Assembly (NCBI GenBank): GCA_037190965.1
Contig: JBBCKI010000049.1
Coordinates: forward strand, 1 to 64,000
Source of the DNA: Chthoniobacteraceae bacterium
GTDB taxonomy: Bacteria > Verrucomicrobiota > Verrucomicrobiia > Chthoniobacterales > Chthoniobacteraceae
Length of the DNA stretch: 64,000 bases
Direction of reading: 5' to 3'
Every line of letters begins with the position of its first letter. Within the stretch, counting starts at the first letter, position 1. The notes below the pieces were generated by a model. It was not told the origin of the DNA. It did not search any database and saw only the letters and a program-made list of their open reading frames with translations. The translations under genes and the position numbers were made by a program. Of this stretch, positions 19,034 to 62,253 are shown in pieces.

Positions 19034-19034
19034 C

Positions 19035-24748: not shown

Positions 24749-24767
24749 TTTCGGCGCCGGCCAGTTC

Positions 24768-43249: not shown

Positions 43250-45409
43250 TCAGGCGGCCTTCCTTGCTCCTTTGCGCCGGAAGAAGATTGCGGCCGCAGC
43301 AGCCGCTCCAGCCAGCAAGGCGTAGGTCTGGGGTTCGGGAACGACCTGAAGGGAGACGATTCCGTTGGAGTAATCGAGCGAATAGGAATATCCTCCAAGG
43401 CCCGAGATGCTCAGGTTCGAAAGGTTCACATCTCCCGTATAAGCGCTCGTGCCCGCGTCACTATAGAAGGCGAACAAATCGAATGTCCCCAACTGAGCGT
43501 TTGAAATCGAAAGATTGACGTTGCTTCCAAGGACCAGGTCGCCGTCGGTGAAATTATAAAACCGGACCGAGTCGCTCGTGTTGGTAGCTCCAAGCTTGAA
43601 TACGAAGGAAGAACCGTCGAGCATCGAGAGGCCGCCGGTCGTCCCTCCGAAATCGAAGGTCAAAGTGCCAATGTTTGCCGTTCCCGCGGCGATGCGCCCC
43701 CCTGATTCGACCGTGATGGCATTGGCCGACCCGAGGGCGACATAACCCAGCCCTCCCAAAGTTGCCCCGCTGTTAACCGTGACGGCTCCCACCCCAACCC
43801 CTGACCCGGTTGTATTGTTGACCAGCAAGGTTCCTCCACGGATCACCGTCCCTCCGCTATAGGTATTGCTGCCGGTAAGGCGCTGGGCTCCCGTGCCGAT
43901 CTTTTCCAAGCCGCCCAAACCGCTGAGGACGCCCGTGTAACTGTTGGGAAGGTTCGAATTGTTATTTCCAACCCGCAGTGTGACAGCGGAAGAGGCAGTA
44001 TCGTTAAGGGCGATATTTCCGCTCCCGATAAGAGTTCCCACAGTATAAGTGCTGCTCGTGGTCGAAAACCGAAGGCCGTCCGCCACACGCACGTTGACCG
44101 TGCTGTTTTGAAGGGCATTGGCGTGGCCCAAGGTAATGTTATTGTTGGGCGTTCCAGGGGCCACCTCGGTAGTGCCGCTGAAGGTGCTCGCGGCGGTCAA
44201 AGTCCAGGTTCCGCTGTTTTGCTTGGTGACCGTCCCGTTCGAGCCCGAAATGACACCGCCGTAAGTGAAGCTACCGGTACGGGCAACAACGAACGCCCCG
44301 CCGTTATCCAAGCTCACGTCTCCGGTGATCGAGCCCAGGGAACCGCCGTTGCCAACCTGCAATGTCCCGGAACTGATCGTCGTCAGTCCCGTGTAGGTAT
44401 TGGCGCCGGTCAACACCGTCGTGCCCGCTCCGATCTGCGAGACGCTGCCCGTGCCGGAAATCACGTTGCTGTGGATCGCGACATCGGAACGGTTGAAGCT
44501 CAACTGCGCATTGTTCACAATCGCTCCGGCCAGGGAACCGGAAGTGCCTCCGTCGCCCAGTTGAAGAACCCCTCCGGAGATCGTCGTACCCCCTGTGAAC
44601 GTATTCGTTCCGGTCAAAATTTGAACACCGGTACCCGTCTTCGTAAAATCAAGAGTATTGCCCGATCCGCCATTGGCAATGGTCCCGCCGTAGGTGGAAG
44701 TGCCGCTACCCGCGACAATCAGGTGACCAAGAGAACTCCCGCTTGAGGACTGGGTCTGAATGACACCGCCCGTTCCGGAGAGGCTCGTCGCCGACAAACC
44801 GCCGGTCCCCGAGGTAGTTCCCACGATATTGATCACCCCACCGTTCACCGTCAGGTCATTGAATGTGGCTGTTCCCGAGTTGGCCAGGATAAAACTCGCC
44901 GTACCGCCGGTTACCAGCGCGCTTCCCGTCGAAGAAAAGGCTTGGAGATACTGGGTTGCGCTTGAGCCAAACCTAACCGCCCCCCCGCTCAAAGTGATAT
45001 TCGCGACGCTCAACGACAGCAAACTTGAAGAACTTCCACGGAAGGTCAAAGTCCTGGACGAATTGATGTTCAAAGTACCGCCGATTGTCAGCGTGGAATC
45101 CGAACTGCTCGTTGCGTTGATGATATCGACGTCACGTACGGTACTGTTGAAGGTGATGTTATTAATCGCACGGCTTCCCTGAATCTGCAGAGCGCCGGTT
45201 CCGGCGTCATTAAAGCCCACAATATTGTCGGTCGAGGAAGGCACTGCGGCCGGAGTAGTTCCATCCACGCGCCAGTTCGAGGCGGTTCCCCAGTTGGCAT
45301 TGGCAGTTGCGTTCCAGGAATAATCCGCAGCCTGGAGACTCGGCAGGAAAGAGGCTCCAGCCAATATCACGGCACCAACGAAAGGGAGGTATTTGGGGGG
45401 AGTGTACAT
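43250..45409 (-). CDS. Autotransporter-associated beta-strand repeat protein with PEP-CTERM sorting signal
   Basis: Four K.G.G...LTG.NT(F/Y)(T/S)G.T.I..G.L-type repeats; C-terminus VVPEPQTYALLAG...FFRRK. Confidence 0.92.
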   Translation of the reverse strand: MYTPPKYLPFVGAVILAGASFLPSLQAADYSWNATANANWGTASNWRVDGTTPAAVPSSTDNIVGFNDAGTGALQIQGSRAINNITFNSTVRDVDIINATSSSDSTLTIGGTLNINSSRTLTFRGSSSSLLSLSVANITLSGGAVRFGSSATQYLQAFSSTGSALVTGGTASFILANSGTATFNDLTVNGGVINIVGTTSGTGGLSATSLSGTGGVIQTQSSSGSSLGHLIVAGSGTSTYGGTIANGGSGNTLDFTKTGTGVQILTGTNTFTGGTTISGGVLQLGDGGTSGSLAGAIVNNAQLSFNRSDVAIHSNVISGTGSVSQIGAGTTVLTGANTYTGLTTISSGTLQVGNGGSLGSITGDVSLDNGGAFVVARTGSFTYGGVISGSNGTVTKQNSGTWTLTAASTFSGTTEVAPGTPNNNITLGHANALQNSTVNVRVADGLRFSTTSSTYTVGTLIGSGNIALNDTASSAVTLRVGNNNSNLPNSYTGVLSGLGGLEKIGTGAQRLTGSNTYSGGTVIRGGTLLVNNTTGSGVGVGAVTVNSGATLGGLGYVALGSANAITVESGGRIAAGTANIGTLTFDFGGTTGGLSMLDGSSFVFKLGATNTSDSVRFYNFTDGDLVLGSNVNLSISNAQLGTFDLFAFYSDAGTSAYTGDVNLSNLSISGLGGYSYSLDYSNGIVSLQVVPEPQTYALLAGAAAAAAIFFRRKGARKAA

Positions 45410-45491
45410 GATTACTTAGGGGGGTAATTGTTGGAATGATTAAAACTGCGGACGGTTATTCTAGTTAGTCCAAAAATGTGCGCTTTTTAGT

Positions 45492-46352
45492 TTATTCCCA
45501 CATTCCGGCTTCCTTCAGGCTTTTGTCAGGAGTTCTTGAAAAATGTTTGCTTACGAAATCCAAAACCGGCCCCAACCCGGCCTGAACGCTCGGAAAAGAG
45601 TGCCCCCCGGGCAGCCTGACCACCTCGTGGGAAATCTTTTCGTCGGTCAGGATCGCCGAAAGACGGTTGTTCATGGCGGCGTCAGAGGCCTTTTCCCCGA
45701 TGACCAGAAGAATGTTGAGGTTCTTCAATTCCCTTGCCCGATTGATCGGGTTGAACCCGGGCCATCGGGCAGGATCATCGCCGAATGTAGCCGGAGTGAG
45801 CGGGAAGCGAACCCCTTCGGCCGGAAAGTCCACCACCGCAATGATGGTCGCCAAGGTCGAAAACGATTCAGGATGCCGGAGGCAGGCCCAAACCGAGCCA
45901 AAGCCCCCCGCCGACCAACCGCCGATGGCGCGCTGTGAGCGCTCCGGGCTGATCTTCAGAACCTTGCCAGCCAAAGCAGTGACTTCGTCCAGATAGCTGG
46001 CGAACTGTCGCGCGGGATCGAAGGGCGAATTGAAATACCAACCATTCTCCCCCTTGGGCAATACGATGACATAAGGCTGCCCGAGCAGTCGTTCCCGGCT
46101 CGCAGGATCATCAATGAGCGTCTTTTCGTTGCGTCCCAGCCCGTGCAGGAAAAACAAGACCGGCCAAGGGCCTGGCTTCGACGAATAGTCTTTTGGAAAC
46201 ACTACACTGAATGCCATCGGTTTCCTGAGGGCTTCGCTCCTGAAAGCATAGTGTCCGATACGGTCGTCCACTTGCGTCTCCATCACGCCCTCCGGCAGGG
46301 GAGCCGCAATCGCCCGTTGCAACAACGCCAGCAGTAAAATCCACTTCTTCAT
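45492..46352 (-). CDS. Secreted esterase (alpha/beta hydrolase, CE1-like)
   Basis: Signal peptide, WPVLFFLHG, GGWSAGG, PGGH. Confidence 0.85.
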   Translation of the reverse strand: MKKWILLLALLQRAIAAPLPEGVMETQVDDRIGHYAFRSEALRKPMAFSVVFPKDYSSKPGPWPVLFFLHGLGRNEKTLIDDPASRERLLGQPYVIVLPKGENGWYFNSPFDPARQFASYLDEVTALAGKVLKISPERSQRAIGGWSAGGFGSVWACLRHPESFSTLATIIAVVDFPAEGVRFPLTPATFGDDPARWPGFNPINRARELKNLNILLVIGEKASDAAMNNRLSAILTDEKISHEVVRLPGGHSFPSVQAGLGPVLDFVSKHFSRTPDKSLKEAGMWE

Positions 46353-46385
46353 TGGTTCGAAAACAGTCAGTCCTTCCGGCTCTTT

Positions 46386-47147
46386 TTATTGCGCTCCCTT
46401 TTCCACAAGAGCCTCCGTGATACTGGCGGCAACCTGCCGGGCCAGAATCACCGATCCATCCTTGCTGAAGTGCACACCATCGGCGGCCTGAATGGTCGCG
46501 ATCTTTGGCAAGGCAAACGCATGCAGGTCGTCCACCCGCACCCCGTTTTCCTCCATGACTCTCTTTGCGGCCTCGTTATAGAGGATTTCCGCCCGGGCAT
46601 CGCGACGGAACCTCCCCTGCGTCTCATGCACCAGGGGCGTCGTTGTCGCAAAGACCAATACTGCCCCCGTCTCTTTCAGGCGGGCGACAAGAGTACGCAG
46701 GTTCTTCTCATACTGTTCAACGGTGACGTTCTGCTTGCCGCTGTCCAGATACTTCAGATCGTGCATCCCCCAGTTGAAGTGAATGACGTCCCACTTCTCC
46801 TTGCCAAGCCATGAGGCAAGATTCCGAAGGCCGGAACGGGTCGATCCGCAGTTGGTCGGCGGCCGATGGACATTCGCCTTTCCCTCCAGGGCCTTACGGG
46901 TTGGGATGGTGTAGCCCATGGAAATAGAGTCGCCGATCAGAAGCACCCTGGGCAGGCCGGGCGTATCCTGGATGGGAACCAGGGATGGCGAACTATATTC
47001 GATTTCCGTCGCTTCATCCACGGCGGGTGATTCGACGGGCGGTGTTTTCCCACCACAAACACCGATGCCGAGGGCGGCAACTGCAAGGAAGCAAACCCAT
47101 TTTCTTGTGCGAAAAAAGAAGCTCTGCGTATTGAGATTCATATTCAA
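46386..47147 (-). CDS. SGNH/GDSL hydrolase (putative carbohydrate esterase)
   Basis: LIGDSIS, FNWGMHD, DGVHF; N-terminal signal (possible lipoprotein, GIGVC). Confidence 0.9.
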   Translation of the reverse strand: MNMNLNTQSFFFRTRKWVCFLAVAALGIGVCGGKTPPVESPAVDEATEIEYSSPSLVPIQDTPGLPRVLLIGDSISMGYTIPTRKALEGKANVHRPPTNCGSTRSGLRNLASWLGKEKWDVIHFNWGMHDLKYLDSGKQNVTVEQYEKNLRTLVARLKETGAVLVFATTTPLVHETQGRFRRDARAEILYNEAAKRVMEENGVRVDDLHAFALPKIATIQAADGVHFSKDGSVILARQVAASITEALVEKGAQ

Positions 47148-47165
47148 TTATCTATTGATCGAAGA

Positions 47166-47753
47166 CTAGGGTTTTGCGGCCGCTGGCTCCCCGGCCACAG
47201 CGGGCAGAACCAATCCAGGCAACTGTTTAACGGCGCGAGGAAAGAGCACGGTCACCTTCTGCAAAGGCCTTTTACCATCCTCTCCGGTCGGCAGGGGCGG
47301 AGGCGCTTTGAAACAAACCGCCATCTGAATCCACCCGCCTGGTCCGAGAGTGGTCATCATCGCGTTCGGCCCAAAATACGGTTTTGAAGGAAGAGTGGAC
47401 AGGGCAGCAAATTCCTGGCGGGTGGCTTCATCGACCAGGCGCGCCGATGCCAGGCTGAATGCCCGGGGGAGTTCCTCATCGTCTTCCATCATCCCCTTGG
47501 CGGACTTCGAGGTCCTGACGTGGCGGCGACGCTTGGTCTCTTTTGGAAGATCGCCAATCATTACCGGCTCGGTCAATGTCTCGTCCGACTTCAGGCGAAT
47601 CACCATCAGAACATGGGAATCATCCAGCCGCTTGATGTCAAAGACCTGAAGTTTGACGCCAGGCCAGGTCGTCGGCACTTCCCTACTCTCCTCGGCAAGC
47701 AGGGAAACGCTCAGGAGAACCGAGAGCAAAATTGGGAGCAATGAAGACTTCAT
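47166..47753 (-). CDS. Hypothetical secreted protein following the pilin cassette
   Basis: Signal peptide MKSSLLPILLSVLLSVSLLA; starts 2 nt after the cassette A stop. Confidence 0.7.
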   Translation of the reverse strand: MKSSLLPILLSVLLSVSLLAEESREVPTTWPGVKLQVFDIKRLDDSHVLMVIRLKSDETLTEPVMIGDLPKETKRRRHVRTSKSAKGMMEDDEELPRAFSLASARLVDEATRQEFAALSTLPSKPYFGPNAMMTTLGPGGWIQMAVCFKAPPPLPTGEDGKRPLQKVTVLFPRAVKQLPGLVLPAVAGEPAAAKP

Positions 47754-47755
47754 AT

Positions 47756-50700
47756 TCAGTTAGTAAGCTCTTTCATGAAAACAACCCGGTACTTGTGGGG
47801 CAGCGGGTAAGTCATCGTCGGTGGAACGCCGGAACCGGTCCCCTTATCGAGATAGCGTTCCACCAGGAACTGCATCCGCGACTCGCCGACGATGAAATCG
47901 CTCGCCTCGACCTGATTGTAATTGGTGTTGCTCGGTTTCTTCTTCACTGTCTGGCCCACCGCCCACACCGTGAACGTATTGCTCCGCGTGGTCGTGTTCC
48001 CCACAACCCGCCGGACAAGGTCATTGCGCGACTGCGCCGAAGCGTCAACCCCCTTGTAAAGAAAGTCGGCCACCTCCGGAACGTTGCAGATCTCGCCCGG
48101 CATCATGAGCGGCCGGTTCAGGCCGGAAATATATTGATGAATGGCCGCCGCAATCGCCGCCTCATCGACGGATGTCGTTCCCGGATTGTCGGACTTTTCC
48201 GTGGAGACTTCCTGGCCCTTCAACAACCCCTCCATCGGCCTCGTGCGCGCGATTGAACCCGTAGGAAGCACCGGCGGGTTCGGGTTGACGCGGCCCGAGG
48301 TCGCTCCATCAAAGGTCAGGTTGACATAAGGAGGAGCGGGACTACCCAGCGGCTGCAACGTCGCGGGCACTGTAAAGAGATCGAGCATCGCCCAATCCGG
48401 ATAGCTAACTCCTCCATCGGTCTTTTGGCTGGAATGCGTCGAAGGGGCAAAGTTGAGCATCCGGAACGGAGTCCCCTTCTGCTCCGCCAGAGGCTTGCTG
48501 TCGTAGGTCTTGTCGGGCATCATCCCCGTGCGGATATATTGAAGATATCCTGCCGATGGAAACCGCTGATTTTTCGGGATGGTGGCATCCTGCTGAGGCC
48601 ACCAGATTGAGAGCGGATCGGCGCCATTTGACGCCTGGGAAGCGGTATTCCGCCCCCCGGTCTCATCCTTATAATACGTTGGTGCCGCCCCAACGGTGGC
48701 AGGGGGAGAAGGACGCGTCATCGTGATCTCCGAACCTCCGACTTTGGCAATCCAATCCCCCGGCATGCTGTTGACCCAAGGATCGGCAACCTGAAAGTGC
48801 ACGGTCACGCTGCCCGGAACCGGCACGACAAGCCCCTTGGGCATCGGAATTACCGCCTGGAGAAGTTCCCCCTTGATGTCGCTGATCGACTCTCCCGTAT
48901 AGAATGGCCCCCGAATGCTGTCCAAAGGCACGGGCTCGATGTTGTAGCCTTTATCCGGGCCCGTGCCCCTCGTTGCCCAGACGGTAAGTCCCCCGGAAAT
49001 CCGGAACTCCGTAACACCGGGTTTGGAGGGATAGAAGGACGTCGAATACTGATTGGTCTGGCAGTGATACTCCCCCAAACCCCAGAGCGGGTTCGCCGTG
49101 GAATTCACCAGGTTCCAGCACATCTTGAACGGCGAAGCAGGACTGCCCGACAGGGGACCCGCACCCATATATTTTCCCGCGTTAGAGCCCGTGGTTTGCA
49201 GGGTCCAGGGGTGATAGGCAGCCGCCTTTACCTGATCGGGATCGGGGCTATTCTTAGGATTTCCGAAAAGGTCAACCCCCGCGGGCGTATCGTTCTGGTC
49301 CTGAATCACCAAAAGGTTGTCCATCCAATAGCCGCCAAGCGGGGCCTCTTTGATCTCCCAGGTACCGGTGCCTGAATTTTTCTCCAGCGGGACATCCATA
49401 TAGTTCAGATGAGAATTGGTCGATTCGGCTCCGAATCGAAACAGGCCGGCTCCGCCATTTTCATAAGGGTCCGCGAGCGGATATCCTTTGTATTCCTTGG
49501 GAAAATACCATTCCGCGTCGATCCGGATACTGATCTGCGCCGCCTCGATTCCGGGTTTCGGGGAAAAAGGGGCGGCGGTGAATTCGACAACAATTTCAGT
49601 GAGCCGAGGCCCCCTGGCCAAGCCCCTCACCGGCTTGCCGCTCAGCCATCCCTTGCCTAGAACCATGGGAAGCGTCGTCGCCCGGTACTGGTCGCCAAAA
49701 GTGCCCCGCTTCATCAACGAGAGGATCTGCAACGCGATGGAATCGATCTGGCGGTCGGTGTACTTACCCGCAAATCCATTGGAGCCGGCGCCCGGAAAAA
49801 CCGGCCATGCGAGGGCGTTGCCCTGGCTGTCGAATCCCTTCAGGTACTGGCAAATCCGATACCCGAGGTCGTAATCCGTATCGCCCGCCTTAAAGTTCTG
49901 GTTATCCAGTCCCCTCTGAAAAGTAAACGTCTGCGGCAGCGGGGCGTTTGTTTTATCGAACTTCGGCAGTTGGGAGCTTGCGGGGTAAACCTGCGCCAGC
50001 GGAAGGCCCTTCGGTTCCCCGGGAGGGACCCCGACGCCCTTGTAGTCATAGTCACCTAGAGCCGCGTTGTAGATAATTCCATCCGAAGTCCCCGTCCTCA
50101 CCGTCGCCAGATAGATCTTCGGCTCGCCGAAGAAATTCAGTTCCGGCGAACGATTGTAGTGAGTGACGGCGAAATTATTGTCGTCGTAGAGCGAAGTCGC
50201 CGCCCCCGGCAGTTGAAGCAGTTCCCCGGGGCTGTTGAACTGCCGGGGTTCGGAAACCGCCGGGTCGTAGTGGATTCGGGTGCGGGAGGCGATCGCCTTT
50301 GCCAGTGTGGCTGAAATCGCGGACGCACCCTCTCTCAGGACTTCGAGACTGACGTCGGCGGGAGTGCCGCTGCCATATGAGTCCGGGGTCGATTTGTCGG
50401 TCCCATTGGCGGTATTGACGTTGATCTTGGCCGTCTCATCGTCCACCCAAAATGCATAGCGTCCGACCACTTTGTTTGTGGCGCTGGCTGCCGCAGACGG
50501 CGTTTCCAGCACATTGTTCCACTGCACCGCCATCTGGGGGGCGCTTCCGCCGACCGACTGGCCGGAGGCAATCGGATATCTCCCTCCGAAGGAGATCTGG
50601 TTGAGATCCACCGTCGTCGCTCCGACATTGGTGCTGGTGGTATACAGAATCCGGCTCGAACTCGTATCGACACTCCCGTCGGAAGCATTGAAAACGGTGA

Positions 50701-50956
50701 TCTTCCCCGGCTGGGACGACCAGAACTTGCCATTGGCGCTCCCATTCTCCGTCGCCTCCCGGATCAGCCCGATGGCATGATCGGCGGCCATTTCGGCAAA
50801 GGAACGAGCCTGCAACGACTCGAAGTTGTTGCGGGCGGATGCGCGTTCCAACCGCATCACCGCGACAAATCCCACCGCAAGAATAGTGACGATGACTAGC
50901 ACGGCGAGCGTGATGATCAGGGCCACGCCTTTTCTGGGAGTCGGAAGCGGTTTCAT
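47756..50956 (-). CDS. Verru_Chthon cassette protein A (large PilX/GspK-like pilin)
   Basis: RKG|VALIITL (no Glu5), W.SQPG, GRYAFWVDDETAKINVNTA, DWAMLDLF, TTRSNTFTVW, FLVERYLD. ATG 50956 overlaps the stop of C. Confidence 0.9.
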   Translation of the reverse strand: MKPLPTPRKGVALIITLAVLVIVTILAVGFVAVMRLERASARNNFESLQARSFAEMAADHAIGLIREATENGSANGKFWSSQPGKITVFNASDGSVDTSSSRILYTTSTNVGATTVDLNQISFGGRYPIASGQSVGGSAPQMAVQWNNVLETPSAAASATNKVVGRYAFWVDDETAKINVNTANGTDKSTPDSYGSGTPADVSLEVLREGASAISATLAKAIASRTRIHYDPAVSEPRQFNSPGELLQLPGAATSLYDDNNFAVTHYNRSPELNFFGEPKIYLATVRTGTSDGIIYNAALGDYDYKGVGVPPGEPKGLPLAQVYPASSQLPKFDKTNAPLPQTFTFQRGLDNQNFKAGDTDYDLGYRICQYLKGFDSQGNALAWPVFPGAGSNGFAGKYTDRQIDSIALQILSLMKRGTFGDQYRATTLPMVLGKGWLSGKPVRGLARGPRLTEIVVEFTAAPFSPKPGIEAAQISIRIDAEWYFPKEYKGYPLADPYENGGAGLFRFGAESTNSHLNYMDVPLEKNSGTGTWEIKEAPLGGYWMDNLLVIQDQNDTPAGVDLFGNPKNSPDPDQVKAAAYHPWTLQTTGSNAGKYMGAGPLSGSPASPFKMCWNLVNSTANPLWGLGEYHCQTNQYSTSFYPSKPGVTEFRISGGLTVWATRGTGPDKGYNIEPVPLDSIRGPFYTGESISDIKGELLQAVIPMPKGLVVPVPGSVTVHFQVADPWVNSMPGDWIAKVGGSEITMTRPSPPATVGAAPTYYKDETGGRNTASQASNGADPLSIWWPQQDATIPKNQRFPSAGYLQYIRTGMMPDKTYDSKPLAEQKGTPFRMLNFAPSTHSSQKTDGGVSYPDWAMLDLFTVPATLQPLGSPAPPYVNLTFDGATSGRVNPNPPVLPTGSIARTRPMEGLLKGQEVSTEKSDNPGTTSVDEAAIAAAIHQYISGLNRPLMMPGEICNVPEVADFLYKGVDASAQSRNDLVRRVVGNTTTRSNTFTVWAVGQTVKKKPSNTNYNQVEASDFIVGESRMQFLVERYLDKGTGSGVPPTMTYPLPHKYRVVFMKELTN

Positions 50957-51909
50957 GGGACGGAGGTTTGCAGATAAACTTTCGTGGAATAGCACTGAGC
51001 TCCTCGCCTGATTCCTTCGGGAAGGCCCGAGATGAAACTCTGGATATCCTGGTAAAATGTCTCGGGACCGGCGGCCGAAGCGACGATGGGAGCGGCAATC
51101 TGCTGGGCCGCGGCGGTTTCGATGGTGACCAACGCGATCTCCACAACGGGGGGTAACGCCGGCGCGGAGTGGATGATGCCGTTCGAATCGGTGAAGCCGA
51201 GCCTCGAATCGAACCCATACCCACCGTTGATCTTCTGGCCTCCAGCCGTTGTGGTGATCGGGTTGCCGCTCGCATCGAGCACACGGACCCAAAGAGCGAT
51301 CACGTTATCGGCGAACCATCCCTTGTAATTCCCGGGGGAACCGGGAGCGACGGTCGAAATGTTTGAAAGCCAGTTCACCGGCTTTCCTGAATCATTCTCA
51401 TAAATCAGATAGTTGGCGGCGTCGGTGGAATCAACATAGTACCGGCAGAGTTCGGGTTGGGCCACGCCCGGCTTTGGGCTGTTCCAGCGCACGAAATAGC
51501 CGACGCAAGCGATATCCCCCTTCCCTCCCTCCCGGCCCGTGGGCGCCTGCCAGAAGATGCCGTGCGGATTGAGCAACCCCGTGGGAACAACCGTGTCTCC
51601 GCCCGAATTTTCCGGGAGGTTGGCGATCATCTGAAGATTGGCGGGCGCGACCGTTGCCCCGGCGGAAATTAGTTGTGAAGAACCGGCCGGTACTGCCGAC
51701 ATTCGTAATTCGCGGGCAATGAACTGCAGGAGCGCGCGGCCGTTGGAACGCCGCTGGTTCTGGCTGTCGCCTTCACGCCATAGCCTTCCGGTCTGGCTGC
51801 TTAGGCTCACCAGCATCACCATGAGGCCGACGAGTGTCGCCATCGAAACCAGCAGCTCCACGAGTGTGAACCCGCGACCCGCGATTATTCTTGAACGATA
51901 TCTATTCAC
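50953..51909 (-). CDS. Verru_Chthon cassette protein C (PilW/GspJ-like prepilin)
   Basis: RG|FTLVELLVSM, HGIFWQAP, VGYFV, ADNVIAL, LPPVVEIALVTI. Confidence 0.88.
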   Translation of the reverse strand: MNRYRSRIIAGRGFTLVELLVSMATLVGLMVMLVSLSSQTGRLWREGDSQNQRRSNGRALLQFIARELRMSAVPAGSSQLISAGATVAPANLQMIANLPENSGGDTVVPTGLLNPHGIFWQAPTGREGGKGDIACVGYFVRWNSPKPGVAQPELCRYYVDSTDAANYLIYENDSGKPVNWLSNISTVAPGSPGNYKGWFADNVIALWVRVLDASGNPITTTAGGQKINGGYGFDSRLGFTDSNGIIHSAPALPPVVEIALVTIETAAAQQIAAPIVASAAGPETFYQDIQSFISGLPEGIRRGAQCYSTKVYLQTSVP

Positions 51910-52381
51910 GGTTTGAAAGACTAAGCTGGACCGTACGCTTCTGCCGGTTGGCTTCGGGAGCGGCGAGAGGCCACGAAATCTGGAGCTTCAAAAAGAGGAC
52001 GTTCGACGCAGGCAGCGCAGCCGGAGAGGAGCGGATCACCGTACAGGCGTACAGGGTGTTGGCATCCGCGGTTCCCGCCCCATTGGCCGAGCCCGCCCCC
52101 GTGGCGTCGTAATAGAAATCAGGAGTCGTGTTTGCGGGGGCGTAATTGGTGTTGGCGTTGACCTTCGTGAACCCTTCCATCCGGAGCGATGTCGAGACGT
52201 GCTGGACTATCAGGCCGACGGCGATGTCGTCGGCGGATTCCCGGTTTGCTTTGATCCCCACGGACATGAGGCCGAGAATGGAGATCAACACGAAAGCGAC
52301 GATGCCGACCGCCAGCACGACTTCGACAAGGCTGAACGCCTTGTCTTTCCGACGCAACTTGCGGTTCACCGGTGTTCTCAT
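51902..52381 (-). CDS. Verru_Chthon cassette protein B (PilV/GspI-like prepilin)
   Basis: KA|FSLVEVVLAVGIVAFVLISILGLM, YYDATG, ISWP. Confidence 0.88.
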   Translation of the reverse strand: MRTPVNRKLRRKDKAFSLVEVVLAVGIVAFVLISILGLMSVGIKANRESADDIAVGLIVQHVSTSLRMEGFTKVNANTNYAPANTTPDFYYDATGAGSANGAGTADANTLYACTVIRSSPAALPASNVLFLKLQISWPLAAPEANRQKRTVQLSLSNRE

Positions 52382-53025
52382 GGCCTCACGACTTTGACGC
52401 GTCCCGTCGCGTCGTTGATGATGATTTTCAAATAGTTGGCCCCGTTGCCAATGTAGGAAACACCCGAGCTCTCCGCGACCCCCGCAACCAGTTTCACCGA
52501 GCAGCCGGGGCTTTGATAGAGGCTCCCGCTCGGAAGAAAAACGAGGTAGCCGTAATCGGTTTTCGGGGCATAGGCCTTTGCCTTGTAGGTCAGCGATGGC
52601 AACGCCGGGGAGACGGCGGGAGTGGTTCCCGGCGAAAAGGCGCGGGGCAAGTTAACGTCGTAATCGGCATCGTCGAGCTTGGATACCACGCCGTTGGGAA
52701 GGAGTTCCCAGCTTGATACCGGCTTCCAGGTGGCGGCCGTGCTTCCGCTGGCGGGAATGTATTGCAACGAGATGAATACCCTGCCTGCGGCTTCCCCATT
52801 GGCCGAGAGCATCGCCACGGCCGTCGGTTGCCGTTTGAGGACGGCGTTCTCCCGGGCGGATTCCAGGAAGCCCGCGAGGCGGCTGCCGCCCGTCGAAATC
52901 GAAGCGGCCGACGTACTGCCGCCGATGCTCACCGTCACAACGCTGGCAATGACTCCGATGATCGCGATGACCATCAAGAGTTCCACCAAAGTGAATGCGC
53001 GATGAATGCGGAAGGAATGGTTCAT
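52378..53025 (-). CDS. Verru_Chthon cassette protein D (FimT/FimU/GspH-like prepilin)
   Basis: RA|FTLVELLMVIAII, LESARENA, FLPSGS, C-terminal IIINDATGRVKVVRP. Confidence 0.88.
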   Translation of the reverse strand: MNHSFRIHRAFTLVELLMVIAIIGVIASVVTVSIGGSTSAASISTGGSRLAGFLESARENAVLKRQPTAVAMLSANGEAAGRVFISLQYIPASGSTAATWKPVSSWELLPNGVVSKLDDADYDVNLPRAFSPGTTPAVSPALPSLTYKAKAYAPKTDYGYLVFLPSGSLYQSPGCSVKLVAGVAESSGVSYIGNGANYLKIIINDATGRVKVVRP

Positions 53026-54341
53026 GATTCTACCCTTTGATTGGCGGCTTTACCCAGCCACGGCCGAAGCAGCAGGAACAGCGAGAGCGCTGCGAGAGGA
53101 TGAAGGACCGCCGCAAGGCCAAACGCAGAGGAATACCCAAACGCGGCAATCGTGAAGCCGAGGAGTTGAGCGAAAAGCATTCCCCCCAGCCCTCCCGCAG
53201 TGCCCATCATCCCCATGACGGTGCCGGTCGCGGAACGATCTGAAAGATCGGCTGCCAGCGTGGCTATATTGGTCGCCCATGCCTGGCAAAGAAACGTAAT
53301 CAGGCAGGTGATCGCGATGGCGCCCGCTGTGCTCTGGATCGTCCCGACCAGCGCGCCGAAAGGTGCCAGCACCCCAACCATGGCCAGGACGGCGAACCGT
53401 GCGCGAGGGGTGGCCCAACCGCGACGGATCAGCGCGTCCGACATGGCGCCGCCCGCGATATTCCCCAAGTCGGCGAAAAGAAACGGAATCCAGCCGTAAA
53501 TACCGATCTCGACGAGGCTAAGATGGCGGATGCGCTGGAAATAGTCGGGAAGCCAGAATAGATAGAAGTACCAAACCGGATCGCTGGCAAACCGGGGCAA
53601 GACCAGCCCCCAGACTTTTCGTTGCCGCAAGAGCACCTTCCACGGCTGGCGCTCCCCTGCGGGCGCTTCCTCCGCAAGCATTGCCCGCTCCTCCTGCGTA
53701 AGCGCAGGATGCTTCTCGGGGCTGCGGTAAATCCAAAGCCACAAAGGCACCCAAACCAAGCCGATCAAACCCGGGAGGATAAACGCCACCCGCCATCCCC
53801 ATTTCAGCGCGAGCCAGGCTACCAATGGGGTGGCCACGATGGCGCCAATCGAAACACCCGAGGAGAATATCCCCGTCGCGAGGGCTCGCATGCGGCGGGG
53901 GAACCACTCTCCGCAAACTTTCAGCCCCGCCGGAAAAATTCCGGGCTCCCCGATCCCGAGCAAAAATCGGAACGCACCAAGGCTGAACGGCCCTCTCGCC
54001 ACGGCCGTCAACATGGTCGCCACAGACCACCAGAGAACGCAGGCCGTCGCCCCGAACCGGGCGCCGAACCGGTCAATCATCCGTCCCGACACGGTGTACA
54101 TCACCAGATACGACAGGAGAAAGGCCGAGACGATGTTGGAGTAGTCGGATTCACTCAAACCGAACTCCTCCCGCAAGATCGGGCTTAATACAGACAAGGT
54201 CTGCCGGTCGATGTAGTTGATGGCGGTAGCCAAAAACAAAAGCCCGACAATGACCCAGCGGACACGCCCATAGGTCATCCAACCTCTCTGCGAACCAGAC
54301 GGCTGGTCCTTCAATGCATCAACTGATTGGGGGGAGGACAT
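53022..54341 (-). CDS. MFS transporter (ExuT/hexuronate-like, ACS family)
   Basis: NYIDRQTLS, GRMIDRFG, RFLLGIGE, EWFP, DPVWYFYLFWLP; about 12 TM. Confidence 0.9.
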   Translation of the reverse strand: MSSPQSVDALKDQPSGSQRGWMTYGRVRWVIVGLLFLATAINYIDRQTLSVLSPILREEFGLSESDYSNIVSAFLLSYLVMYTVSGRMIDRFGARFGATACVLWWSVATMLTAVARGPFSLGAFRFLLGIGEPGIFPAGLKVCGEWFPRRMRALATGIFSSGVSIGAIVATPLVAWLALKWGWRVAFILPGLIGLVWVPLWLWIYRSPEKHPALTQEERAMLAEEAPAGERQPWKVLLRQRKVWGLVLPRFASDPVWYFYLFWLPDYFQRIRHLSLVEIGIYGWIPFLFADLGNIAGGAMSDALIRRGWATPRARFAVLAMVGVLAPFGALVGTIQSTAGAIAITCLITFLCQAWATNIATLAADLSDRSATGTVMGMMGTAGGLGGMLFAQLLGFTIAAFGYSSAFGLAAVLHPLAALSLFLLLRPWLGKAANQRVES

Positions 54342-54342
54342 G

Positions 54343-55644: not shown

Positions 55645-55645
55645 A

Positions 55646-58600
55646 TCAAAGAGGATTCAGATCATCGGCGGCCTTCACGGAGGCCTCATTTCCCGCGGCG
55701 GGTGTTGTCGCGGACGTCTCCGGAGAAACGCTCTGCCGGTTACCCGCCCAATCTTCCGCGAAGACCCGGTAGTAATAGGTTGTTTCAGCCTTCAGTCCGG
55801 TATCGCCATAGGTTTGAAGGAAGAACTTCGTCGGTTCCACGGTAGCGAGAAAATTCTCCTCGGAAGCTTCGACTCCCGGATTGAGGCTCCGATAAACATC
55901 ATAACGGGCGACATCGGGGTCCTGGCTCTTGAGCCAGTAGAGCTTCAATTCTGCGGATGGATAGCGAACCACTCCCAGGTCCTCGACAGGGCGCGGAGGA
56001 GTCGTATTCTTCCGGTCGGTACGAGCCTCCTTTCGCTGTGAAACCGGCCCTTGCTGGTTGAACGCGGAGAGAGGCGCGACATGATAGTAATACCGAGTAT
56101 CGATCTTCAGGTCATTGTCGATGAACTCCGGTGTCACCGTCCGGTTGATGGCGCTATAGGCCGTCGGCGGCGCGTCGGGATCCTCCGACCGGTAAACCTG
56201 GTAGGCGGCTGCCCCCGGCACTGCTTTCCAGTTCAACTCAACGACGCTATCGGAAACCGGCTTCGCCTGGAGCGACTCGATCGCGGAGAGCGCCTTGGCG
56301 GGCCCGGCAAAGCGGACAGTCGTGAACGAGAACGGCTCGACGGGCACCTTCACCTTTCCGTTAACAACCGGCAGCGGTTGGCCGTCGTTTTCGACGAGAT
56401 CGCAGAGGAAGGCTTTTTCCGCGGAGAAGGTCGAGAGATCGACAGTGATCTCGCCTTTTTTCCCTTCCGTCTCCACGAGGCGCGCCACCCATCCCCTGCC
56501 CGGCTGCGACGACGGTTTAAGAGTCGCCAGCTGGACGTTGGACGCGTCGGCGGAAAGAAAGCTCTTCGCGGTTTCAGGCAAATTCCCCTTCTGGCCTGGC
56601 GGCAACAAGCGGGCTTCGGCAGGGCTGGCAACCGACCAGCCGAACTGAGTCACCGCCCCTTGGTTCCAATCTCCCGGGTGGGAGGTGAACGAATACCCGA
56701 GCGTGGTGTTCCATTCATTGGGCCCCAACTCGATCAGGCCCGACATCCGGTTGGACCATGCATAGCTGTAGAGATACGGCTTCTGTGGCTTGTAATCGAT
56801 GGAGAACTGGTTGTAGCGGATCTCGCCGAAGTTGACCGTCGTCGCATTCCACGGAGCCATGGTGATTCCGTACTGGGGGTTGCTGACATCGACCCACCAG
56901 TTGACGTTGAGATAGTCATGTGAACCCCAGCGAAGCTGGTCGTCATAGGGACGCACTACACCCCCGGGATATTCCACCCTCGGGGTGAAACCCTCTACCG
57001 CAACCGGGAAGGCATAATAGAGGTTCTTCCGGTAGCGTTCACGGCGGTCACCATGCAAAGCCTTCACATGGCGAAGATCATTGACGATATCGATTCTCTT
57101 CAAACCGGCATAAAGAATGGCCCTTTGGGAAACGGCGGCTCCCGTGAGAGGATCTTCAATTTCCACCGTCATCTCCCCCTTGACCGCACCAGCGGAGGAA
57201 TTCAGCTTCGCCTTCGCCGTGAGAGGCGTTTGGCTCATTTCCTTGCTGTCGCGGGTTTTCGATTCAACCCAGATCATCTGGTTGAACTGATGTTTCGCCG
57301 CGGAATCAACCAGCTCGCGTTTCAGTTCCTTGTCGAAAACGCTAACGATGGTTCCCGTTTCACGGTCGAAGCGAAGGGTATAAAATTCGTTCGACAAAGT
57401 GTCGGACGTCGTGCTGACGGAAGCTTTTTCCGGAGCCACCGAAGTGCTCGAAGCCCCTTGTGGGACATAGACTTTGTACCCGTAGGCAGGGAGATCCCGG
57501 GCGACGAAGATCACCTTGTTGGGCCCGACCTTCTGGGTGGCAACGGTTTCCCCCGTCGCCTTGTCGGCGAGCGCCCGGAAGTCGCCTTCCACTTCAACCA
57601 GCCCCGTGCGCGAATGCAGTAGCGGATTGAAGACGGCAACCGCGCCGGTTGGCCCGGTGGGGATTTGTTTGAACAGCGCGGAGAGGCTGGAATCGGCTAG
57701 TTGCTCCGCCGCGTCGAGCGCGCGGCGTCCTTCCAGGTGCTTGACCCACTGCGCGTTGAAGAGGTGGTGCCCGATGGGAGGCGGCGAAGTCGGCCAGCTA
57801 TGTTCGGTGAAGTCGAAGAGCCGCGTGTAGGTCCGTTCAATCCCGTCGGCCGGTGGGTTGAAAGAAGGATCGAGCAGATTCGCCAGCGACGCCGCGCCTT
57901 CGGCAAGCGGAAGGAGACGGGAGGCCCGCCGTTTCCATCCCTGGGAGTTCGGGTCGATCGCCGCATAGTCTCCCGAGAAGTTGTTCAACTCTCCGCTGAG
58001 GAGCGGAAGTGTGTCGCTATATTTTCTTTCGACGTACTCGAAGAAATCATTAACCCCGGCGATTCGGATCTCCGGATACCGATAGAGGTTCTGCCAGCGG
58101 CGCAGCGCCCGGTTGTCCCATTTCGGCGTCTCATGATCTTCATAGGAAGGGACGATCATCGCGTCGTATGGGTACGGCCCAAGAAGCTCGCCCGACTCCA
58201 CCTTCTTCATCTCGGCGTTGATATGACGTTTGGCGAGGTGCGAGAGATCCGCGCCCCCGCCATCCGGCTCACCATACCAGAACCCTTCTCCATAATGCGA
58301 CCGCCAGGCATACAGAACGCGGCTCTTCCCATTGGGCCCCTGCCACCAAAAGAGGGCGGGAACTTTGGTCGTCTTGAAATTGTTGTTGCCGCCCGTCCGC
58401 CACGGCTGGCCCAGCCTCAGAATATAGCGGAATCCGGCATCGGCCGCCGCCTGGGCGGCGGACCATGAAACGCTCGGGTTGTCGACGAGAATGAACGTCT
58501 TGAGATCGAGACCGAAACGATCCTTCGCTTCCCGACGCCCCGGATAGGTCATCCGCGCCATTTCTTCGTAATCCATCCATTGCGGGTGAATTCCGCTCGG

Positions 58601-59245
58601 CGCGCCGCCCAGGTCCATTTTCCCCGGTTTGATTTGCTCTTCCACCAGACGACGCCATTCGGCCTCGGAGCGTTCGTCGATATAGTTCCGTTGGAAAAGG
58701 ATCGTCTCCAGAGTGAAATGAAATCCTCGCTGCGACGGCTTTCCGGATGCGTCGGGCGCAATCTCTCGCGGCCCGGTCAACTCCTTCGCCATGTCGATAA
58801 AGTTGGCGATCGCCTGCTGCTTTTTATAGATATAGCTTTCGTAACCGAGATCCTCGTGGCTGGACTTGATGATGTAGACGATCCACTTCCGCTGCGGTTC
58901 CCAACGCTGTTTGTGCTCCGCGAGGAGGTGGCCCTTATCAGCCTTGATCTCCACGACCAGATCCGCTGGTTTATCGATCTCGGCAATCAGCAGATCCTGC
59001 ACGGAAGAGCCGGGAGGGACCTCCAGCTTGAGGGGTGATCCTTGTGCTTTCCCGTTGAGCTTGACGACCGCAGAGCAGGAAACCGTGCCGGTTCCGGAAT
59101 TCACCAGCGAGAGCCAGCCGACCTGCTTTGACGGCGTTTTACTGGGGAAAAGAACCGTCGGCTCCAGCCCGGTGATCGAAATCTCCGAAGCCCCCGCCAG
59201 TGCAAGGGGTGAAATAAGGAAAGCAATTAAAAGGTTTCTTATCAT
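55646..59245 (-). CDS. Secreted GH38-like (alpha-mannosidase family) glycoside hydrolase with C-terminal FN3 domains
   Basis: Signal peptide, SHEDLGY, P.LFWWQGPNG, LPLLSGE, EHSW, VFNPL, two FN3 repeats. Confidence 0.8.
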   Translation of the reverse strand: MIRNLLIAFLISPLALAGASEISITGLEPTVLFPSKTPSKQVGWLSLVNSGTGTVSCSAVVKLNGKAQGSPLKLEVPPGSSVQDLLIAEIDKPADLVVEIKADKGHLLAEHKQRWEPQRKWIVYIIKSSHEDLGYESYIYKKQQAIANFIDMAKELTGPREIAPDASGKPSQRGFHFTLETILFQRNYIDERSEAEWRRLVEEQIKPGKMDLGGAPSGIHPQWMDYEEMARMTYPGRREAKDRFGLDLKTFILVDNPSVSWSAAQAAADAGFRYILRLGQPWRTGGNNNFKTTKVPALFWWQGPNGKSRVLYAWRSHYGEGFWYGEPDGGGADLSHLAKRHINAEMKKVESGELLGPYPYDAMIVPSYEDHETPKWDNRALRRWQNLYRYPEIRIAGVNDFFEYVERKYSDTLPLLSGELNNFSGDYAAIDPNSQGWKRRASRLLPLAEGAASLANLLDPSFNPPADGIERTYTRLFDFTEHSWPTSPPPIGHHLFNAQWVKHLEGRRALDAAEQLADSSLSALFKQIPTGPTGAVAVFNPLLHSRTGLVEVEGDFRALADKATGETVATQKVGPNKVIFVARDLPAYGYKVYVPQGASSTSVAPEKASVSTTSDTLSNEFYTLRFDRETGTIVSVFDKELKRELVDSAAKHQFNQMIWVESKTRDSKEMSQTPLTAKAKLNSSAGAVKGEMTVEIEDPLTGAAVSQRAILYAGLKRIDIVNDLRHVKALHGDRRERYRKNLYYAFPVAVEGFTPRVEYPGGVVRPYDDQLRWGSHDYLNVNWWVDVSNPQYGITMAPWNATTVNFGEIRYNQFSIDYKPQKPYLYSYAWSNRMSGLIELGPNEWNTTLGYSFTSHPGDWNQGAVTQFGWSVASPAEARLLPPGQKGNLPETAKSFLSADASNVQLATLKPSSQPGRGWVARLVETEGKKGEITVDLSTFSAEKAFLCDLVENDGQPLPVVNGKVKVPVEPFSFTTVRFAGPAKALSAIESLQAKPVSDSVVELNWKAVPGAAAYQVYRSEDPDAPPTAYSAINRTVTPEFIDNDLKIDTRYYYHVAPLSAFNQQGPVSQRKEARTDRKNTTPPRPVEDLGVVRYPSAELKLYWLKSQDPDVARYDVYRSLNPGVEASEENFLATVEPTKFFLQTYGDTGLKAETTYYYRVFAEDWAGNRQSVSPETSATTPAAGNEASVKAADDLNPL

Positions 59246-59338
59246 GGTCTAAGCGATTTCATTGATTCGGCAGCCTCTTTCTCGATCTCGGCTCCGACGA
59301 ATGGTTAACTTCTGATGAGGGGATGAGAAAAAGCGCAT

Positions 59339-61159
59339 TCAGTGGCCCAATTCGGCGATTACCTTTTTGGTTTCCTCAGGGTTATGCTTCATCCGGATAC
59401 GCCACGCCATCTCCTCTGGGGAAACGATGCGAATCGTATCGGGCAGCCGTTCGGCGCACCAAACTGCCGGAAGGTAGCCCCGCACGCCGCCCAGGTCTTC
59501 GAACTTTTCTTTACCGGAAAGACTCCTCTTCGGCGGCAGTTCTTCGGCGAGTTCGTCCATCCCAGGCGCTTCCTTGAAGTAAGACCAGGCGTGAACCATG
59601 GCCCAGTCATTCCGGGGAAGCTCCTCTGACGTGGCCTGGGCGATCGAATCCCGGATGAACCGCGCCGCTTTGGCCGGAGTTCCCGCGTTCTTGCGATTCT
59701 TCAACTGCCACCAGATCTGGTAGCGCAAGGTGATAACCGGGATCTCCCGCCCCCGGGCATCCTTGACCCAGTAAACCTTTCCGGCTCCCGCATTGTAAGG
59801 AGAGTATTCGAAGGCGAGAATCGCTAGCATCCCGTCCATCTGGCTGGCAATGACTTCGTAAGCCTTTTGGGCATCGGGCGAATCGAGATGCCGCACATTG
59901 AAGCCGATCATGTTCGTCCCCGCCTTCTTCATCATTTCCCAGGTATCGCGGGCGTGGCCGGCAAGCAGTTCCCAGCGGTTGGGCCGCTCCGAGGCGAAGA
60001 GATCAGGATAGTAATACCCCCCGTGCCATTCCACGAACCAGTCGTTCGGAGTGCGCGTTTGAAGCGCATACTCAAGCGGCTGCGGCCCGAGTTGGACGAG
60101 ATGCGCCAAAGGCATGCCCCAGCCGAAGGAAATCTTGCCGCACGCCGGGCAATTCCAATAGTAGGGCGTGCCGCGATAAAACGCGTTCATCGCCCAGGTA
60201 ACGTTGTCTCCGTCGGAACAGAAGAAGCTAATCGTGCTGCGGTTATCGTTCCAATCGATCTGCTTCGGGTCGAGATGCGGAACCTTCGGGATCTCCGCCT
60301 CGTGAGTTCCTGCGGAAAGGACCGTCAGGTTTGGAATCAGGCTGGAAGCGGTCTGGAAATGCCCGTAGATGGTGGCAAGGCGGGTCGCCTTGAATTCGTC
60401 GCCTGCGATCCATCCCAGAATCGGCGCCGAAGGCTCCGCCCAAGCCATCGCTGAAGTCGCGGGTTCCTCGGTGCCGTAAAAGGTAAAGGTGTTGTGCGTG
60501 ATGGCGTAGTCGCGGGAACCGACGATTTTCGGGTCAAGCGAAGTCAGCATCCGCCGATTGAACCGGTCCTTGTATTGATCGAAGCACCATTGCTGGCTCT
60601 TGTCGCGGGCGTCGAAAAGCAGCTTCAGCCCCCGTTTCTTTGCTTCTTTTTCGAGCCTTTCTTCGAGAACGATGCCACCGAAAATCCCCGCGAGACTCGT
60701 GGCGATATTGACCGAATTGTCGATCCCTGGCCGCTCCTTCGTTTTGGGCTCCTCCTTCGAGGCGTCCGCTTTGTAAAGGATATAGCCATTGACGATCTTC
60801 TTGTCGGCAAACCTTTCGACAAGCTCCCACGGCCCGAATGTCCCGCGATCCTTGATCTCCGGGTGATTCGCGGAAAACGTCTTGCCCCACGCTTCCACGT
60901 CGGCATTATCCATAGTCACCCAGACCAGCTCATCGCCTTTGCCCTCGTTGACGGACTTTCCCGCAAGACCGGCGACGGACTGAACCATGATGCGGAGCGA
61001 ATTCGAAGAAGACGGCCATTGGCGCATCTCAGCGGTGCGAACCAGTCCCGTCGGCAGACGCTGTATGGGAAACCAGCGATGGCTTCCCTCTCCCGCCAAG
61101 ACGGCGAGTGGAAGAAGGAAAGACAAAGCAAGCGCAAGGCTCCGGGGGGAAAGCGTCAT
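59339..61159 (-). CDS. Secreted GxGYxYP-family putative glycoside hydrolase
   Basis: GYILY, SDGDN, GGYYYP, VHAWS; signal peptide from ATG 61159. Confidence 0.8.
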   Translation of the reverse strand: MTLSPRSLALALSFLLPLAVLAGEGSHRWFPIQRLPTGLVRTAEMRQWPSSSNSLRIMVQSVAGLAGKSVNEGKGDELVWVTMDNADVEAWGKTFSANHPEIKDRGTFGPWELVERFADKKIVNGYILYKADASKEEPKTKERPGIDNSVNIATSLAGIFGGIVLEERLEKEAKKRGLKLLFDARDKSQQWCFDQYKDRFNRRMLTSLDPKIVGSRDYAITHNTFTFYGTEEPATSAMAWAEPSAPILGWIAGDEFKATRLATIYGHFQTASSLIPNLTVLSAGTHEAEIPKVPHLDPKQIDWNDNRSTISFFCSDGDNVTWAMNAFYRGTPYYWNCPACGKISFGWGMPLAHLVQLGPQPLEYALQTRTPNDWFVEWHGGYYYPDLFASERPNRWELLAGHARDTWEMMKKAGTNMIGFNVRHLDSPDAQKAYEVIASQMDGMLAILAFEYSPYNAGAGKVYWVKDARGREIPVITLRYQIWWQLKNRKNAGTPAKAARFIRDSIAQATSEELPRNDWAMVHAWSYFKEAPGMDELAEELPPKRSLSGKEKFEDLGGVRGYLPAVWCAERLPDTIRIVSPEEMAWRIRMKHNPEETKKVIAELGH

Positions 61160-61236
61160 ACGTAGGAATAGATTAGTTGCAGTCGAACGCAACTGTTAGT
61201 ATGTAAATAGCTTGATTTTGGTCTATTCGTGCACCC

Positions 61237-62253
61237 ATGTCCAAGAAGCCATCCCCCCAATCGAAAGCCCCGGCTTTGCAGGAACGCTCCCCTTCGCTTT
61301 TGGCCCAGCTCATCGCCGAGATAGAAAGTATCGGTCCGCTCCGCCTGAATTTTGAAGATCTTACCGGCGTCACCCTCGACGTTCCGGAACTAAATCTACC
61401 TCCCGAAAACCGGTTCCACGTCTGTGATTTCTGCATGCTGGCCAAGCGCCACCGTCAGGGGCACTTCCAGTGCAACCGGAACAAGGACACCGTCAACCGC
61501 CTCGCCCGACGCCGGGGGACAGGTTTCATCGGCCAATGCCACCTCGGCATGACCGACATCGTCGAGCCGTTGCTTTTTCATGGCCGCACACTCGGGGTCT
61601 TTTATTACGGTTCCGTGCTGGTCGAAGGAACCCGCGAAAAGGCCGAGGAGCGAATCCGGCGCTCCTGCAAGCGGACCGGAATGGCTCCCGGGCTCCTCCT
61701 GAGACAGCTCAACAAAGCGCCGGTTATCACGGCGGACGAGCTCGCCCGCTACAGCAAACGTCTTTTGCTGATCCGCGATCTTGCCATCAAAATCATCGAG
61801 GCATGCAGCGTGCCGGTGGAACGGTATTCCACGCTGCTCAACTTCGGCTTCACCTCAAACCGCCGCCTGCTCCCGCCGCTGACGCAGACGGCGATGGGGT
61901 ATGTGCACCGCCGTTATCAGGACCCGCTCGAAGTCCTCACCATCGCCAAGGCGCTCAAGTGCCAGCCCAGCCATTTGAGCCGTGTGTTCAAGAAAAGCGC
62001 GGGGTATTCCCTGTCGGATTATATCAAACGGGTCCGCATCGACCACGCCATGCGCCTGCTCAGTTCCAGCGAATACAGCGTCGGAGAAATCAGCTATATG
62101 GTCGGCTTTCAGGACCAAAGCCATTTCGGCAAAGTCTTCCGTTCGTTCTTGAAAATGACGCCGCTGGATTACCGGCAGCAATACCGCCAGGGGGACATCT
62201 CCGGCAAGGCGGATTCGGAAAGCATCGCCTTCAGCAACTTCCAGTCGCTTTGA
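61237..62253 (+). CDS. PocR sensor domain + AraC HTH transcriptional regulator
   Basis: FC...C...CHLGMTDIVEP PocR motif; HLSRVFKK...VGFQDQSHFGKVF...TPLDYR. Confidence 0.9.
   Translation: MSKKPSPQSKAPALQERSPSLLAQLIAEIESIGPLRLNFEDLTGVTLDVPELNLPPENRFHVCDFCMLAKRHRQGHFQCNRNKDTVNRLARRRGTGFIGQCHLGMTDIVEPLLFHGRTLGVFYYGSVLVEGTREKAEERIRRSCKRTGMAPGLLLRQLNKAPVITADELARYSKRLLLIRDLAIKIIEACSVPVERYSTLLNFGFTSNRRLLPPLTQTAMGYVHRRYQDPLEVLTIAKALKCQPSHLSRVFKKSAGYSLSDYIKRVRIDHAMRLLSSSEYSVGEISYMVGFQDQSHFGKVFRSFLKMTPLDYRQQYRQGDISGKADSESIAFSNFQSL

Follow-up and report, generated by a model that had tools for sequence, protein, structure and literature searches.

The window analysed here is a stretch of 64,000 nucleotides from a Chthoniobacteraceae bacterium (source genome G000, 4.21 Mb, 97% complete). 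At 43250–62253 it carries genes for glycan breakdown and sugar transport, and in the middle of them stands a cassette of four adjacent pilin-like genes, D-B-C-A, followed by a fifth gene, E (Table 1). An earlier note on this DNA described eight closely packed minus-strand genes, from a GH38-like hydrolase to a secreted protein, here called E, and its coordinates for the seven junctions hold in every case, three of them being gaps (1, 1 and 2 nt) and four overlaps (4, 4, 8 and 4 nt). The family assignments were likewise borne out by Pfam and NCBIfam scans. A start within -8 to +2 nt of the upstream stop is possible in 545 of the 2364 same-strand neighbour pairs of the genome, and therefore seven in succession indicate an operon-like run; the chance of such a series would be about 3.5e-5 if the junctions were independent, which operon junctions are not. 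The cassette may be co-transcribed with the glycan genes under the divergent PocR-AraC regulator.

Table 1. Genes of the locus in order of decreasing coordinate, with one related feature elsewhere in the genome (G556/L081, a genome of another family of the order).
Feature	Position	Strand	Basis	Junction with the following gene
GmhA-like SIS sugar-phosphate isomerase, part of conserved unit	63355..63990	+	66% homolog in G556 run	
ROK-family sugar kinase, part of conserved unit	62231..63190	-	Pfam; 59% homolog in G556 run	
PocR-sensor AraC-family regulator, divergent from run	61237..62253	+	Pfam PocR and HTH_18	
GxGYxYP putative glycoside hydrolase, signal peptide	59339..61192	-	Pfam, 3 domains; 3SGG, E 4.7e-19	
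GH38-like predicted hydrolase, divergent, signal peptide, fn3-like C-terminus	55646..59245	-	GH38N, GH38C, GH38C2 over cut-off	gap 1 nt
FAD-dependent oxidoreductase PF12831	54343..55644	-	Pfam; 74% in G556/L081	gap 1 nt
Major facilitator superfamily (MFS) transporter, nearest sugar-acid (DgoT/ExuT-type) models	53022..54341	-	TIGR00893; 79% in G556/L081	overlap 4 nt
Pilin D, GspH/FimU-like	52378..53025	-	TIGR02596 51.5 bits (cut-off 70); GspH 3.7e-11; A/FTLVE motif	overlap 4 nt
Pilin B, probable I/PilV position	51902..52381	-	TIGR02598 61.4 bits (cut-off 51.4); A/FSLVE motif	overlap 8 nt
Pilin C, probable J/PilW position	50953..51909	-	TIGR02599 64.4 bits (cut-off 256.5); G/FTLVE motif	overlap 4 nt
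Pilin A, 1066 aa, K-type, no Glu5	47756..50956	-	TIGR02600 199.6 (cut-off 332.3); G/VALII motif; start at ATG of MKPLPT	gap 2 nt
Protein E, 195-aa secreted beta-sandwich	47166..47753	-	fifth gene of this cassette clade	
SGNH/GDSL esterase	46386..47147	-	Pfam; 70% in G556	
PF00756 esterase (CE1-like)	45492..46352	-	Pfam; 83% in G556	
PATR beta-repeat protein, PEP-CTERM-like tail	43250..45409	-	Pfam/NCBIfam	
598-aa protein, part of conserved unit	40511..42307	-	67–70% homolog in G556, immediately upstream of the GH38-like gene	
Riboswitch, PEP-CTERM-like protein and single prepilin	L057:5641-7488 = G000:C18 63.6-65.5 kb		riboswitch scan	

The arrangement is retained in a second family of the order. 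In G556 (family f8, the source genome being of f1; also fetched as L081 and counted once), the order runs AraC regulator (71% identity, likewise divergent from the same run), 598-aa protein, GH38-like protein (64%), FAD oxidoreductase (74%), MFS transporter (79%), then D, B, C and A (40–56%, A itself at 56%), and after A come E, an SGNH esterase, a pectate-lyase-like protein, an esterase, a different PATR-PEP protein, the ROK kinase and the GmhA-like isomerase. Across 400 genomes of the order G556 holds the only close GH38-like homolog, and parts of the gene order are repeated on two metagenome contigs (L082, L083) whose A proteins are 91–92% identical. The coupling proposed earlier between cassette and glycan genes is thus seen both in the tight packing here and in its retention elsewhere: regulator, hydrolase, transporter and cassette are conserved together across two families. 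The genes between 43250 and 62253 are real, but since homologs of the 598-aa protein, the ROK kinase and the GmhA-like isomerase lie within the G556 locus, the conserved unit exceeds the limits drawn before. The GxGYxYP hydrolase has no counterpart in the G556 locus and is a replaceable member, and least conserved of all is the PATR-PEP protein, which gave no tblastn match in G556, where a non-matching PATR-PEP protein occurs. For two other cassette paralogs, too, relatives preserve the enzyme set particular to each (C10 with L162, C50 with L160). The locus is real and conserved: a probable type IV filament tip set stands among glycan genes that have no Sus components.

The best NCBIfam match of each of the four adjacent pilins is one each of TIGR02600, TIGR02598, TIGR02599 and TIGR02596, the families Verru_Chthon A to D. 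According to the TIGRFAM comment, cassettes of this kind stand near PEP-CTERM/autotransporter-repeat proteins, and we know of no function assigned to them. As in typical members, the present cassette is multi-copy and has a PATR/PEP-CTERM protein nearby, 2.3 kb downstream, with a VPEP tail and a PEP-CTERM motif slightly below cut-off (20.0 against 20.7). Unlike them, only B passes the curated TIGRFAM cut-off while D, C and A fall below it, A belongs on a quick tree to a clade separate from most high-scoring TIGR02600 members, a fifth gene follows, and the set is embedded between the MFS gene and the esterases. The name Verru_Chthon cassette therefore suits its four best-match models, copy number and neighbour but not its scores, and we file it, on its profile matches, as a divergent Verru_Chthon-like clade. 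No paper on the Verru_Chthon cassette names or accessions, or linking pilins to verrucomicrobial or planctomycete glycan loci, was found in a literature search that mostly did not cover subscription journals.

Class III signal motifs of the form (G or A)/F-x-L-V-E with Glu5 occur in D, B and C, and G/VALII without Glu5 in A; the genome has one prepilin peptidase. In the structural model of A the pilin fold spans residues 39–1066, the top structural matches include GspK, ComZ, XcpX and other minor pilins, and the top full-length match is GspK of the type II secretion system (T2SS). The model suggests a K-type pilin split by an insertion that holds a helix-hairpin-helix unit (175–269) and a variable beta-rich domain (446–768). 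Together these features let D-B-C-A read as a probable H-I-J-K-type pilus-tip set, and the earlier idea of a pilus or pseudopilus tip is supported as far as a minor-pilin tip set is concerned. With GspH-I-J-K and FimU-PilV-PilW-PilX (for example GspK of enterotoxigenic Escherichia coli, 3CI0, and XcpX of Pseudomonas aeruginosa, 5VTM) it has in common four pilins in the order H-I-J-K, and A shares with GspK and XcpX the largest-subunit position and the missing Glu5 and, judging by its model, probably a pilin fold interrupted by an insertion with a helix-hairpin-helix; but the length of A is some 3.5 times that of GspK, with an extra beta domain, and the cassette, unlike those sets, lies far from any assembly operon in 15 divergent copies. 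The insert is the most variable region of A (34% against 41–55% elsewhere in 70 homologs; 8–15% among 14 paralogs). Modular tips and binders are also found in Streptococcus sanguinis PilC, which is a lectin, in Thermus thermophilus ComZ and in the Sulfolobus bindosome, but each of these occurs in one copy only and does not recur within numerous catabolic operons, and, unlike PilC and the bindosome, A yielded no recognisable lectin or solute-binding fold in searches with its model. The protein described before merely as secreted is so, yet it is also a conserved fifth cassette gene: E follows A in 44 of the 47 related loci with room. In Foldseek its model (pLDDT 88) weakly resembles Ig folds of the YjhA/YcdA type (E 1.9e-3), and E is a predicted fifth subunit of this cassette clade.

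As in a polysaccharide utilisation locus of Bacteroidota, a regulator, hydrolases, esterases, an inner-membrane transporter and a surface protein are clustered here, but SusC/SusD is missing and the pilins stand in the central part of the run. The window contains no susC/susD pair, none of its 43 proteins scanned is an outer-membrane beta-barrel transporter, and the 97% complete genome gave no SusD_RagB match, in agreement with the non-Sus architecture claimed before. There are two TonB receptors in the genome (one barrel-model match, two plug matches): the first is nearest to PqqU/siderophore models, the second, missed by the barrel model, ends a NikR-CbiM-PDGLE-CbiQ-CbiO operon (L192:8408-13420, G000:C45), and by these relationships both look metal- or cofactor-linked and neither glycan-linked.

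The same genome holds 15 A-type genes and about 32 single prepilin genes, most of the latter ending in an H-x9-DG-like motif. Two T2SS operons each have their own H-I-J-K minor pilins. A complete Akkermansia-type MUL2 operon (Amuc_1102–1098; L075:546-7546 = G000:C18 14.5–21.5 kb), with all five genes over cut-off and in order and with structure matches of its proteins to 7DSZ and 6KNY, contains no pilin gene. Further machinery comprises a PilB-PilB-PilC locus with one pilin, an additional PilB and four PilT/U ATPases. A shared secretin machine of the kind postulated earlier, namely a pilin-less MUL2 operon with retraction ATPases, is therefore present; all five genes of MUL2 of Akkermansia muciniphila (Amuc_1098–1102) have their place elsewhere in this genome, MUL2 being the machine and the cassette the predicted tip. 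At C60 9428–12695 two prepilins and a 605-aa PilX-like gene make up another tip-like set, unmatched by the A profile.

For the association of cassettes with glycan genes, genes were called by a simple codon model and the flanks of the remaining cassettes of this genome were scanned over some 10 kb in either direction (198 genes in 28 stretches, without the C60 pair and one C38 fragment). As controls served 146 of 197 genes in random windows away from known pilins (18 of 24 windows), and both sets were searched at E<=1e-7 with long proteins shortened. Strict glycan enzymes (glycoside hydrolases, BNR, SASA and carbohydrate-binding modules, tallied by hand) account for 17 of the 198 flank genes against 1–2 of 146 control genes (Fisher p 0.0009–0.003), a broad glycan set for 27 against 2 (p 2e-5) and LacI-type genes for nine against none (p 0.012), p-values that overstate the contrast because genes cluster, the contrast itself being favoured by categories set after the flanks were seen and by controls that exclude pilin regions. 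A strict enzyme occurs in 12 of 29 flanks and in 1–2 of 18 control windows. Genome-wide, a cassette lies no more than 10 kb away from 9 of 46 LacI-type, 5 of 16 DUF4838 and 3 of 12 BNR genes, as against 6.4% of all genes, and with single pilins included the counts rise to 25, 13 and 8 against 18.4%; two of the three remaining DUF4838 genes are at contig ends. Six of ten additional pilins adjoined markers earlier taken as pilin-free. Some other cassettes run straight into SSF, ABC or hydrolase genes, and two (C4:111-116 kb and C30) stand in mainly housekeeping surroundings.

We propose, at a probability of about 0.45, that D-B-C-A encodes a capture tip particular to its locus, carried by a common retractile machine, and that this tip would bind the glycan of the locus. 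The set would assemble in trans on the pilin-less MUL2/PilB-PilC/PilT machine of the cell, mainly because a retractile machine without a tip set coexists with many tip sets without a machine. The variable insert of A may be the binding module and E a tip accessory; on retraction the bound glycan would be brought to the secretin or pass through it and be degraded in the periplasm by the GH38-like, GxGYxYP and esterase proteins, and the MFS transporter would import the products, the tip set thus filling the slot of the missing outer-membrane importer. This is favoured over export because both T2SSs own their tips. It is also favoured because the outer-membrane step would otherwise stay unfilled, with no glycan-linked TonB receptor and no SusD, and because in Akkermansia MUL2 has been connected with the acquisition of glycans. 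There MUL2 is reported to be important for mucin acquisition (bioRxiv 10.64898/2025.12.30.696933), and periplasmic glycan accumulation depends on mul genes (PMC13174399); MUL2 is conserved in Akkermansiaceae, less so in Chthoniobacterales, and has been modelled as an attachment pilus (PMC13174399). As far as they were consulted, these two texts link MUL2 to glycan acquisition but not to the present cassettes. A further ground is a cobalamin riboswitch (40.5 bits, cut-off 31.5) that immediately precedes a gene pair for a PEP-CTERM-like protein and a single prepilin. It was the one riboswitch found when 10 of the stretches with single pilins were scanned, and it fits nutrient uptake better than export; the point concerns the single-pilin class, not the cassette.

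Several observations weigh against extending the glycan link to cassettes in general. In 20 cassettes from 11 genomes of relatives, taken mostly for the highest TIGR02600 scores, enrichment was not significant: of the 157 flank genes 11 were strict enzymes, found at 6 of the 20 loci, and of the 119 control genes 4–6, in 3–5 windows, the controls being 20 hand-placed windows from 8 of these genomes. On the quick A tree sugar-linked and unlinked cassettes are intermingled. Forty relatives have 0–10 TonB barrel matches each, and the scarcity of these receptors, whose absence from the locus the earlier note pointed out, is lineage-wide and says little about this locus. The predicted enrichment of cassettes near carbohydrate-active enzymes is thus seen in the own genome and is not significant in the relatives, and therefore the claim is not extended to the whole family. 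Own-genus loci among the relatives are of glycan type in 3 of 3 cases, and outside the genus the figures are 4 of 17 against 3 of 17. Among 16 of the 64 related loci of this A clade, in which 91 proteins were scanned with no control set, 6 have a glycoside hydrolase, 3 a GDSL esterase only, 3 only sugar transport or catabolism and 4 nothing, and beside none of the 16 is there a TonB receptor. The glycan link is strong in this genome and in its genus and belongs also to part of this A clade, but it is not extended to all Verru_Chthon cassettes. Two A-type genes occur in one 20-kb stretch in L157 (G024) and in L164 (G035), the tandem of L157 beside GH5, a XylR-type regulator, SSF and GH95.

Surface display of GlyGly-CTERM and MYXO-CTERM proteins depends on T2SS, and the tip could likewise be an export adaptor, an unlikely alternative although the best placed of those considered, which recognises the PEP-CTERM surface proteins or hydrolases of its locus and pushes them through a secretin as a T2SS pseudopilus tip does, the glycan being cut outside and small products entering via porins and the MFS transporter. 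The likeness of A to GspK agrees with this, as does contact of T2SS substrates with the tip, reported in PMC4471445. PEP-CTERM-like proteins are also frequent near cassettes (12 of 87 at no more than 10 kb, against 6.4%) and near single pilins (32 of 87, against 12.4%), and several cassettes of relatives (L147, L149, L155) adjoin 2000-aa proteins and not hydrolases. Export is harder to reconcile with the 44 of these 87 proteins that have no pilin at that distance, with the H-I-J-K genes that both T2SS operons already possess and with the poor conservation of the PATR-PEP protein.

Somewhat less probable still is adhesion only, in which the tip would hold the bacterium on a glycan-bearing particle or cell with no transport through the secretin. 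The attachment-pilus model of MUL2 and the many cassettes of relatives without catabolic neighbours are in its favour, and the size of A, over 1000 aa, puts passage through the secretin, or plugging of it with cargo, in question; but hydrolases with signal peptides and no surface anchors, together with the lack of a glycan-linked TonB receptor, would leave the outer-membrane step unfilled, and a pilin gene under a B12 riboswitch, though of the single class, is hard to fit. Co-location of mobile, variable surface modules with glycan genes in the same flexible regions, without joint function, would explain the lack of significant enrichment outside the genus, the mixed A tree, the housekeeping surroundings of some cassettes and an integrase gene adjoining one of them (L002), but it is improbable given that the MFS stop overlaps the start of D, that the full order with its regulator persists in another family at 40–56% pilin identity and that SSF, ABC or hydrolase genes follow other cassettes without interruption.

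Verrucomicrobiota are major glycan degraders that take polymer into the periplasm (PMC13174399), yet TonB receptors are few in the order and the present genome gave no SusD match. The capture tip can be widened into a bolder and more doubtful proposal, that Chthoniobacterales swap TonB uptake for a library of interchangeable tips on one shared retractile MUL2 secretin machine importing the bound ligand, about 15 four-to-five-gene cassettes and some 32 single pilins each being regulated together with a single nutrient module (for glycans, B12 or perhaps metals). If true, it would be a new principle of outer-membrane import and would identify the specificity factor still wanting in Akkermansia MUL2; if export or adhesion is true instead, filament tips would still be exchanged on a large scale to match their substrates. 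The locus offers a concrete test case, with one regulator, a hydrolase set, a tip set and a shared machine, conserved in two families. The present analysis adds the K-type model of A, by which a structural role as K-type tip with variable insert can be tentatively assigned to the Verru_Chthon A family, together with the fifth gene, the retention of the arrangement and its regulator across families, the MUL2 machine without pilins and the negative test of generality.

Among the other genes of the locus, the GH38-like protein is a predicted glycan hydrolase, with N and C domains over cut-off and a weak fn3 match; the middle domain PF09261 went undetected in the Pfam scan. Its motifs SHED, DNP, SYEDHE and EHSW are retained in the 64% homolog, there are at least 120 homologs (identity 47–87%), some of them, at 50–55%, in Acidobacteria and Opitutaceae, and with a canonical GH38 of the same genome it has almost no similarity. 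The MFS transporter matches MFS_1, its top NCBIfam model being the D-galactonate transporter TIGR00893 (6.9e-79; 265.6, cut-off 395). The GxGYxYP gene may alternatively start at the ATG at 61156, and the 598-aa protein has no match in Pfam, NCBIfam or PDB. The ROK kinase and the GmhA-like isomerase (62231–63990) travel with the locus, and one might speculate that with the GH38-like protein they salvage manno-heptose from bacterial polysaccharide. A gene of the fatty acid hydroxylase/sterol desaturase family (42350–43177, minus strand) has an 82% paralog on C27; it occurs in L082, but the G556 locus lacks it. The window also contains a second Sus-less glycan locus at 9069–25967 (minus strand), with a GntR/LacI-type regulator, a PEP-CTERM-like protein, a beta-helix protein, a single prepilin (18254–18997), a BNR protein, a GH78-like rhamnosidase, an enolase-family enzyme and an SASA esterase. 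Around it, in positions 1–34000, the G+C content is 0.51–0.55 as against a genome average near 0.59, and the GC skew is negative across almost the entire window.

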